This document shows positions 37,401-52,510 of a stretch of DNA of 56,982 bases, in pieces. The stretch lies in assembly GCF_006345805.1 (NCBI RefSeq), contig NW_021833663.1, positions 1 to 56,982 on the forward strand. Reading direction: 5' to 3'. The notes under the pieces are model-generated. The model searched no databases. It was not told the DNA's origin and saw only the letters and a program-made list of their open reading frames with translations. Positions within the stretch are counted from its first letter, which is position 1, and each line of letters opens with the position of its first letter. The DNA is from Octopus sinensis. Lineage: Eukaryota. The translations under genes and the position numbers were made by a program.

Positions 37401-40400
37401 CGGCGCCAGAGAGACTACACAGTTCAAAGGAGCCGGTAAAATAAGTAAAATATTGGTCCGTTTCTATTCTGTTATTTCCTCAGGGTTACCTCTTTACCAT
37501 TGCTTGTTATTCATAAGTAACTAACGGAAGAAGAATCCGTTTTGATCAGAAAGAAGAACATTTTAACAGACAGACAGAAATTACATCAATGTAATCATAC
37601 ACATACATTAATATAAACCCACATTCAGACAAACGCATAGATGGAGAACAGTCATATACGCATATCTACTCACACAATATATTACGCATAAATGCACATT
37701 CGCGTAAATACATCTTCATAAACACACACGCATTATTTATTTAAAGGACACAATACATGTCTTTATGTGTTACTAACAGTTTCATATGTTGAGAAATATC
37801 ACCAGCACATTCTTCAGGCACAAGAGATCTTGATACACCCATCCTCTTTGCAATATACTTTGCTGTTGTGCCGTCACACGCTTTTCAAATCTCCGAGGAG
37901 GGGATTTATATAAAATATCGAACAACAGGGAATGTTTTTTAATCTGACCAAACTGATATTCAAAACTAAGGTTTGTTCCTCCACTTATTAGCGAACTCCT
38001 ATACGATGACGGTTGCGGTGATCTAGTCAATCACTCTGAAATGGGGCTTCAGTCTCTTGTTTCTGCATTTCACACAGTTTGTGATGATTTTCGCTTGACC
38101 ATCAAGTTATAAAAAACAGCAGTTGTAACGTTTCAACCTGCATGTGGTGTGCTTTTTGCAACTCCACCAAAAGTTTTTGTTAGATATGCTACGTGAGGTC
38201 ATTGACACTTTCAAAGAACTTGGAAACTCTGTATATATATATATATATATATATATATATATATATATATATGTGTGTGTGTGTGTGTGTGTGTGTACAT
38301 ATGCATGTGAGTGTGTCTGTGTTTGTGTCACGATCACTGCCTGATAGCCGGTGTTGGAGTGTTTGCATCCCCGTATCTTTGCCGTTAGTTAAAAAAGATT
38401 AATAGAATAAGAACGGGGCTTAAAAAAAGAAGAACTGGGGTTGATTTATTCGACTAAAATTCTTTAAGGCGCTGCCTCAGCATGATTGCAATCTAATGAC
38501 TGGATCGGGAAAAACAAGGTAAGCAAGACACAAGAACTATTTAAATGTGTTTAACCTTTCATCTGTAATAAATCAGGTTTTAATTATATCAGAAAATCAA
38601 CAACACTGACCTCTAAAATCCTTCTTGTTACATAAGTTTCCGATGCAGCAAGCAACGCAGGTAGAGCCACTTGTCAATTCATTGCATGTAAGGGTGTTGT
38701 TTTTCATAGCATCATCACATTTTCTGAATGTGCTACAGGATTTTTCAAACTTCAGTTTAATGCCATCCATTGATAATTTAAATTGGCATACAGGCTGTAA
38801 GAGTAAACACAGAAATCATATACAACTACGACAACAACACAAAAGATATTTGAGATGGAAAATGTTGAGTCACTGCTCTTAAAATTATCAAAAGACAACA
38901 AAGGAAATGTTGAAAGATGACTGCACCCGCAGAGTTATCTCCTATAAAATTAATTGCTGGCAGAAACGTTAGCACGCCGGGCGAAATACTTAGCAGTATT
39001 TCGTCTGCCGCTACGTTCTGAGTTCAAATTCCGCCGAGGTCGACTTTGCCTTTCATCCTTTCGGGGTCGATTAAATAAGTACCAGTTACGCACTGGGGCC
39101 GATATAATCGACTTAATCCGTTTGTCTGTCCTTTGTCCTCTCTGTGTTTAGCCCCTTGTGGGTAGTAAAGAAATAGGTATTTACTACATCTAAATGATAT
39201 TTATAAATAGCCCCAATATGCAACGTTCTCATATCACGTGCCAATATGGCCAGAGAAATACGGCCTATCACACCACTCCGCCAGACGCCATCAAACGCAA
39301 TCGGGCACGCACGCACACAAACACACTGAGAAGGGAAATGACAAATAATTATAATTCTGTATAATTCGATCAGAACTTCTTATTCGGATGTAAGTGCATT
39401 GAATTCTCTGTGCAAAATGTACGACCAGTCACGATTACAAACACCAGCAACAACAGTGTATACTACAAGATAATACTACCTCAAGATCACCAAAACTGGG
39501 AGTGAGTGTGTGCAGTTCAGGGATATTGAGCCCGCTATTGGCTACTACTAATAATCTTGTTGAGCTCGTAGAACAGCGGAACTTGCTTCCAGGTTGACTC
39601 AGGACAAGTACTTCATTCATACCACCCTAAGTACAGCCATGTTTGTTGGAGAAGGAGAAAGGAAGAGGCCACAAGTAAGCTCGTGAGTTCGATTCGTGGA
39701 CAGAGGGGAACCGTGTGTTCTTGAACAAGGCACTTCATTTTACGTTGCTCCAGTCTACTCAGATGAAACTGTGTAACCAGCCTATTGCCGGTCATCTTTC
39801 TCTCCTTTCAAATGTGTAATCATCGTTGTTCTGCTAAGTCAAAGATGACTGGAGGCACATGACCTAGTGATTAGAGCAGCGGACTCGCGGTCGAGGGATC
39901 GCGGGTTCGAATCTCAAACCGGGCGATGTGTGTGTTTATGAGCGAAATACCTAAGCTCCACGCGACTCCGCCAGAAGGTTATGGCGAACTTCTGCTGACT
40001 CTTTCTGCTACTTGGCCATCCTGGCTTTAGGTGAGGGCTATGAATATATTTATAGCAAAAAGGAAGGAAGGAACATTTGAATTTACCTCATCGCCTGTAC
40101 AGTGTGTCACTTCCGATTCATTGCACTTCATCCCTGAACATGTTTGACACAGCAAATTCCGTTGAAATAACGAGTAATCTATGCAATACAATAAAATATC
40201 CATATTTAAGAACCAAATATGTGATGTATAAGAAAAAGAAAAAATATTTACTTTGTGGTTTAAAGCAAATGTAAAAGTGTTAAGGTTGGACTCAATACAT
40301 GTGAGATATTTAAATTAAATTCTCAATGAAGACTACAAAAGAATGTTACGATTTTCACTTGCAATTGTTTCAGTTTTGTCCCAAATTAAACAAAGAAAAC

Positions 40401-52510: not shown

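Follow-up and report, generated by a model that had tools for sequence, protein, structure and literature searches.

Octopuses possess an expanded set of G-protein-coupled receptors belonging to the adhesion type (aGPCRs), designated group 3, that lies near human ADGRG1-6 (Ritschard 2019; PMC6408891). The available text of that study reports LRRs in 5 of 22 group 3 sequences and in one bobtail-squid member, positive selection at branch level, and expression in axial nerve cord, suckers, skin and gills, and the only domains it names are GPS, 7TM, LRR and one Death domain. The terms "Ly6" and "uPAR" have 0 occurrences in its main text, and the Ly6/uPAR (LU) domain appears only as one unlabelled SSF57302 row of a table. 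Receptors with an LU domain are also in print: starfish ADGRG2-/G6-like receptors carry a Lynx2/LYPD6-like LU (PMC9410279, PMC11595613), among them LyAr2/LyAp2 and XP_033635539.1, with the LU of LyAr2 grouping with Lynx2/LYPD6 and with LU positions of 224-305 and 186-244 in supplementary rows of PMC11595613. Likewise, LU-bearing 7TM receptors of molluscs and arthropods are reported in PMC13719153, whose Figure 2 legend names LRR and GPS. As far as the accessible parts of these papers extend, these receptors resemble the one described here in being ADGRG2/G6-like 7TM receptors whose ectodomain bears an LU, but neither an LRR-LU-SEA-HormR-GAIN arrangement nor an octopus expansion is described in them. 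Panel B(2) of Figure 2 in PMC13719153 may show the full arrangement seen here, which may bear on novelty.

The window analysed here, a stretch of 56,982 nt from Octopus sinensis (contig NW_021833663.1), contains on its minus strand an open 23-exon model with the domain order LRR-LRRCT-LU-SEA-HormR-GAIN/GPS-7TM. All 23 exons were checked individually: they have no internal stop, their phases chain, and they agree with the public 1,064-aa model P0008, labelled Octopus sinensis ADGRG6, partial. The introns are GT-AG in 22 of 22 cases. A signal-peptide or LRRNT exon was looked for up to the contig end and none was found, so the gene is 5′-incomplete. From its 5′ end, the model comprises the following exons.

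52439-52510, minus strand: LRR exon 1, the first recognisable exon (72 nt, phase 2-2)
50286-50357, minus strand: LRR exon 2 (72 nt)
48127-48198, minus strand: LRR exon 3 (72 nt)
47328-47399, minus strand: LRR exon 4 (72 nt)
45514-45585, minus strand: LRR exon 5 (72 nt)
43780-43949, minus strand: LRRCT exon with 4 Cys (phase 2 in, 1 out)
40087-40178, minus strand: LU exon A with Cys 1-4 (92 nt; acceptor gcatag, donor gtaaat; phase 1 in, 0 out)
38611-38794, minus strand: LU exon B with Cys 5-12 and the CCxxxxCN end (184 nt; acceptor ttacag, donor gtcagt; phase 0 in, 1 out)
37106-37197, minus strand: SEA exon 1 (phase 1 in; the paralogue fold matches the SEA region of Gpr126)
36552-36604, minus strand: SEA exon 2, present in P0008
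36024-36178, minus strand: SEA exon 3 (phase 1 out)
35506-35617, minus strand: HormR exon 1 (weak Pfam HRM matches in relatives, E 0.7 in P0002 and E 0.0098 in P0039)
33020-33189, minus strand: HormR exon 2 with the beginning of GAIN, present in P0008
23094-29527, minus strand: four GAIN exons (29527-29296, 26845-26674, 25577-25425 and 23222-23094), in continuous match to ADGRG2 and ADGRG6
21676-21825, minus strand: GPS exon with HL/TSFAVLM (Pfam GPS, E 2.5e-13; predicted cut, marked by the slash, at L785/T786 of P0008)
7021-21423, minus strand: five 7TM exons (21423-21302, 19332-19212, 12674-12554, 11574-11502 and 7402-7021, the last with the stop; Pfam 7tm_2, E 2.5e-28, above cut-off)

The LRR array of P0008 is matched by Pfam LRR_8 with E 1.6e-41. 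Two further candidate exons, 35331-35239 and 22518-22406, are absent from the model and were rejected, as was 20800-20608, also absent from it, which has what we take to be the appearance of a mariner remnant. Judged by eye, transposon remnants occupy 44844-44362 and 20819-20467 on the minus strand and 54200-56600 on the plus strand; they are presumably a reverse-transcriptase tail of RTE/LINE type, a piece of a mariner-like transposase and decayed frames like those of an LTR element, respectively.

The 12 Cys of the LU exon pair fall at residues 238-313 of P0008. A first-pass annotation of the window had described two exons with 12 Cys, an LxCxxC start and a CCxxxxCN end, set as a shuffled module between phase-1 introns, and located between the LRRCT and the SEA/HormR/GAIN part of an adhesion GPCR. 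This description holds throughout: exon coordinates and residues agree with it, the phases read 1-0-1, paralogues carry tandem duplicates of the exon pair, and the 23-exon chain runs through it to an intact GPS motif. From C5 on, the Cys spacing (17,6,11,9,3,1,5) equals that of the last eight Cys of human Lynx2/LYPD1, with the Lynx2 figures taken from the available text of PMC7582953. Human LYPD1/Lynx2 (6ZSS) and LYPD6 share with the octopus domain the 12 Cys, the identical C5-C12 spacing and a helix before loop III, but they are stand-alone GPI-anchored proteins and their loop I is longer (9,9,8 versus 5,8,7 in octopus). The stand-alone anchored or secreted form of the Lynx1, Lynx2 and Sleepless type is not what is found here, the octopus LU being internal to a 7TM receptor.

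Profile and structure comparisons point to the same domain. A PDB search with a profile of 17 exon-B copies returned six matches (E up to 10), five of them three-finger proteins, and aligned human LYPD1/Lynx2 (6zss) without gaps over 55 positions (E 0.022). Pfam UPAR_LY6_2 gave weak matches in 14 of the 17 exon-B copies, all below the curated cut-off (best E 0.002); exon B of the window reached 13.3 bits where the cut-off is 31.5, and whole proteins gave no LU match. The Lynx2-type domain of octopus receptors thus escapes Pfam at its cut-off. Its fold was predicted with AF2 for paralogue P0040, which is 61% identical to the window gene in exon B (45 sequences, mean pLDDT 76.6); a single-sequence AF2 model of P0005 was discarded (pLDDT 36.9). 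Among the 50 matches listed in a structure search with the P0040 model, the four covering the Cys domain were all three-finger folds: Lynx2 (Z 7.5, middling by itself; rmsd 2.9 over 79 aligned residues), Prod1 (Z 6.9), ALK1 (6.7) and ALK2 (6.7). Foldseek placed Lynx2 at rank 5 with E 0.019, no match reaching E 0.001; phmmer of P0040 against the PDB produced only 3 chance matches, and an Atlas search with the LU segment produced no usable one. We take SSF57302 to be the snake-toxin-like superfamily. The InterPro table of 2019 lists a match to it at 136-215 of P0076 (PMC6408891), which is the LU domain of that protein. Cys pattern and predicted fold together identify the exon pair as an LU/three-finger domain of Lynx2 ("prototoxin") type. 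This agrees with the prototoxin-like identity proposed from the sequence at first pass. The six disulfides are predicted to pair as in Lynx2 (C1-C5, C2-C3, C4-C6, C7-C10, C8-C9 and C11-C12).

The rest of the protein is closest to ADGRG receptors. Residues 554-1047 of P0008 form one continuous match to ADGRG2, which together with ADGRG6 heads the PDB sequence matches (E 2.5e-53 for ADGRG2), and the family profile tracks residues 408-780 of zebrafish Gpr126 (6v55) in a single stretch, from SEA through GAIN. The SEA of P0040 has structure matches with Z 7.5-8.2, among which the Gpr126 SEA region is tied with other ferredoxin-like folds, and Pfam recognises SEA in P0063 (E 2.9e-4). The GPS of P0008 has what we take to be the canonical cleavable form, whereas variants occur among paralogue models (RL/KSF in three, YL/TSF in one). 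GPR126 begins with CUB and pentraxin domains; the octopus receptor shares its SEA-HormR-GAIN-7TM core, but CUB and pentraxin are absent from P0008 and from the paralogues with a full N-terminus, which have LRR and LU instead, and P0008 contains no R-x-K/R-R furin motif. ADGRA2/3, originally chosen as comparators, also carry an LRR array on an adhesion GPCR, and in Atlas features for paralogue P0065 they rank 2-7 at 0.83-0.86, a lead only; the top cluster there (61 members, Mollusca being the commonest taxon) may be P0065's own. The octopus protein differs from them in having no Ig domain, an LU directly after LRRCT, a SEA, and a GAIN/7TM nearer to ADGRG. Judging by sequence matches and nearest human sequences, ADGRG6/G2 are the better comparators, and the receptor core resembles these (GPR126) rather than ADGRA2/3.

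The window copy itself departs from its relatives at two points. Compared with the other aligned paralogues that have the region, exon 12674-12554 (minus strand) lacks 8 residues at the end of TM3/ICL2; since the O. vulgaris models P0002 and P0004 share the loss, it is not an assembly error. At 7023-7009 (minus strand) a stop codon closes the frame 12 nt short of a donor site, and the downstream exon at 4514-4462 (minus strand), which matches the C-tail of O. vulgaris P0002, is in another frame; the C-tail is hence shortened by a frame change, as it is in P0004. With the TM3/ICL2 loss and the early end of the C-tail, this copy may couple to G proteins differently from most of the family.

The window gene belongs to a large family. 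When candidates in the O. sinensis genome were scored, exon B matched in 72 of 80, exon A in 61 of 62, the LRRCT exon in 57 of 63, the GPS exon in 47 of 67 and the last 7TM exon in 59 among 150; each figure sets a minimum for copy number, and duplicate haplotypes may account for some of the short contigs. An LRRCT exon lies no more than 40 kb upstream of 55 of the 72 exon-B loci and a GPS or 7TM exon downstream of 28, with 23 (19 of the 46 on large contigs) situated between LRRCT and a GPS/7TM exon; reciprocally, exon B occurs within 40 kb downstream of 51 of the 57 LRRCT loci and upstream of 27 of the 47 GPS loci. This count took in 53 of the 59 7TM matches, 6 overlapping fragments being dropped. 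Outside the window, a protein search for the family gave 64 matches among 7,987 scored candidates, all 64 from Octopus, and in two smaller searches 5 of 14 and 3 of 6 candidates matched, again all Octopus; these searches demand shared 5-residue words, so the Octopus-only matches do not show absence elsewhere. Four group 3 accessions from O. bimaculoides (A0A0L8FLR8, HDZ7, GYR2 and FKK5) fall in the clusters of the LU profile with the same layout; three have a full LU, and the remaining one begins with the SEA exon. By these shared clusters and layout, the family of the window gene is identified as octopus group 3 of PMC6408891. The O. bimaculoides member P0067/P0073, already present in the available text of that study, has both a full LU and an intracellular Death domain that follows the 7TM.

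Conservation of the LU was compared with that of the other domains. Among copies fitting a fixed-spacing pattern, the only ones included in the splice-site and dN/dS counts, exon B keeps its acceptor AG in 40 of 40 and its G/GT donor in 38 of 40 (one other has A/GT in the same phase and one is a base short), and exon A keeps both sites in 19 of 19; the sites persist in copies with as little as 37% identity. Median dN/dS of exon B is 0.49 (446 pairs from 31 unique copies) and exceeds 1 in 3.4% of pairs; among close copies it reaches 0.6-0.7, which leaves room for some diversification. Mean identity to P0008 is 56% for LU, 47-53% for GAIN, 54% for 7TM, 41% for SEA and 39% for LRR, and LU distances follow GAIN+7TM distances over 16 paralogues (Mantel r 0.69, p 0.0002). 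The LU is conserved about as well as GAIN and 7TM, and better than LRR or SEA, and its distances track those of GAIN+7TM, so it predates the expansion. Over 37 unique domains, P259, S266, T280, K273 and N291 are near-invariant residues other than Cys.

Taken together, the gene encodes an octopus ADGRG (GPR126-like) adhesion GPCR with an LU between LRR and SEA. We consider it fairly probable that this receptor cleaves itself and is activated by a tethered agonist, and that the LU is a fixed part of the head that binds partners rather than a channel modulator set free from it. Self-cleavage of GAIN, retention of the ectodomain and activation by a tethered agonist are general features of adhesion GPCRs. 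By analogy, the GAIN would cleave itself at HL/T, leaving the ectodomain attached, and binding to or pulling on the ectodomain would expose TSFAVLM and activate the 7TM; ligand binding, self-cleavage and signalling of this receptor are all predicted in this way. Both ends of the LU would exit from its head and connect through short linkers to LRRCT and SEA, so that the stalk would be bent, with the fingers pointing sideways, and LRR+LU would take the position of CUB+pentraxin in GPR126. The short linkers, the lack of a nearby furin motif, the conservation of the LU and its co-inheritance with the receptor fit a fixed binding or shaping module beside a more variable LRR array.

Some of the same data could also be read as indicating a mere rigid spacer retained from an older ADGRG-like receptor, with specificity residing wholly in the variable LRR array. 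The LRR is indeed the most variable part (39% versus 56% for LU), paralogues differ in their number of LU (1 to 4), Cys have been lost in some LU (P0064 has 9 and P0060 has 11), and, in the accessible texts, the starfish LU receptors are likewise annotated as ADGRG2/G6-like. The many near-invariant non-Cys residues, of putative surface exposure, nevertheless exceed what a spacer needs, and we regard this explanation as unlikely.

The LU might instead act like Lynx2 or Drosophila Bero, either in the receptor or in a shed ectodomain, by binding and tuning a nearby nicotinic-type channel, for instance the chemotactile receptors of suckers, or a GPCR, and linking it to G-protein signalling. Lynx2, whose subtype the LU shares, modulates alpha4beta2 nAChRs (PMC7582953), the fly LU protein Bero is a cis-ligand of a GPCR (bioRxiv 10.64898/2026.06.29.735401), and a Lynx2-like function was proposed for starfish LyAr2 (PMC11595613), in each case according to the part of the source available. 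The tissue pattern is also compatible, with axial nerve cord, suckers and skin being enriched for group 3 receptors in the accessible text of PMC6408891 and with Ocbimv22014869m (protein P0073, full LU) having expression shares of 0.71 in skin and 0.17 in sucker. However, the LU is tethered at both ends within a long stalk that lacks a furin motif for its release, and most copies have N-glycosylation sequons on loop III. Furthermore, the available text of PMC7582953 describes three-finger proteins as lacking a conserved surface pattern, the fold not predicting the target, and a search of the literature on octopus chemotactile receptors and Ly6/lynx found nothing relevant. Fold and tissue pattern make such an action on channels or GPCRs possible, but it is rather unlikely. 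Still less probable is its broadest form, in which dozens of octopus aGPCRs with 1-4 Lynx2-type LU, along with receptor-less LRR-LU-SEA paralogues, would use their fingers to dock, in suckers, skin and arm nerve cord, onto channels of nicotinic type (touch-taste receptors among them) and thereby link these to a GPCR that senses force.

It is very improbable that the Cys-rich exons lie outside the receptor mRNA, whether as an artefact of annotation or as a gene of their own nested in the locus. Public model P0006 does join LRRCT directly to exon B, and P0001 starts within exon A, but a nested stand-alone Ly6 gene was rejected because phases chain through both exons, because neither exon contains a stop, a signal peptide or a GPI tail, and because of the linkage of exon B to LRRCT and the conservation of splice sites. 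Public models from three Octopus species that include the LU exons, together with these conserved sites, indicate that the exons are probably spliced into the receptor mRNA.

A fixed LU within an ADGRG-like receptor, as we prefer to read the window gene, places the locus among receptors partly described. The first-pass annotation had proposed a lineage-specific new class and knew of no characterised aGPCR with this combination. The family is indeed expanded in octopus, but the combination of LU and adhesion GPCR is not a new kind, LU-bearing members being in print for starfish, molluscs and arthropods (PMC9410279, PMC11595613, PMC13719153), and the octopus expansion as well (PMC6408891); the architecture is to that extent already widespread and described, and in the available parts of the LU papers no such receptor is functionally characterised. 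Our literature search, whose scope excluded most subscription papers, found no text on LRR-LU-SEA-HormR-GAIN in octopus, nor on the presence of LU across the family, tandem LU repeats or paralogues seemingly without GAIN/7TM. Sequence and predicted structure give good support for a genuine LU domain that recurs throughout a large family of octopus genes. Its recognition adds a Lynx2-type ectodomain module that was missing from the account of an octopus-specific receptor expansion tied to arms, suckers and skin, connects this expansion to the LU-bearing ADGRG-like receptors of starfish, molluscs and arthropods, and provides a concrete test case for whether a "prototoxin" domain inside a GPCR contacts ion channels.

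The layout of the family is not uniform. LU exon pairs occur three to four in a row at C29:1,825,954-1,844,651 (four pairs), C29:2,084,958-2,101,781 and C6381:27,232-41,591, and public models contain three LU (P0013) or two (P0015 and P0033, the latter with a GPS). At five loci (C29:0.97, 1.01 and 2.10 Mb; C25:23.29 Mb; C5:115.93 Mb) another SEA block comes after LU-SEA-HormR, and the downstream stretches that were read contained no GAIN exon; P0039-like models end after LU-SEA-HormR-SEA, and two of the GAIN-less loci contain frameshifts. These paralogues may be secreted, ectodomain-only proteins or broken, decayed copies. Finally, the exon B at C13511:61,651-61,830 has 100% protein identity to that of the window over 60 aa, compared with 85% for the LRRCT exon and 94% for the last 7TM exon of the same copy, possibly reflecting gene conversion or constraint.
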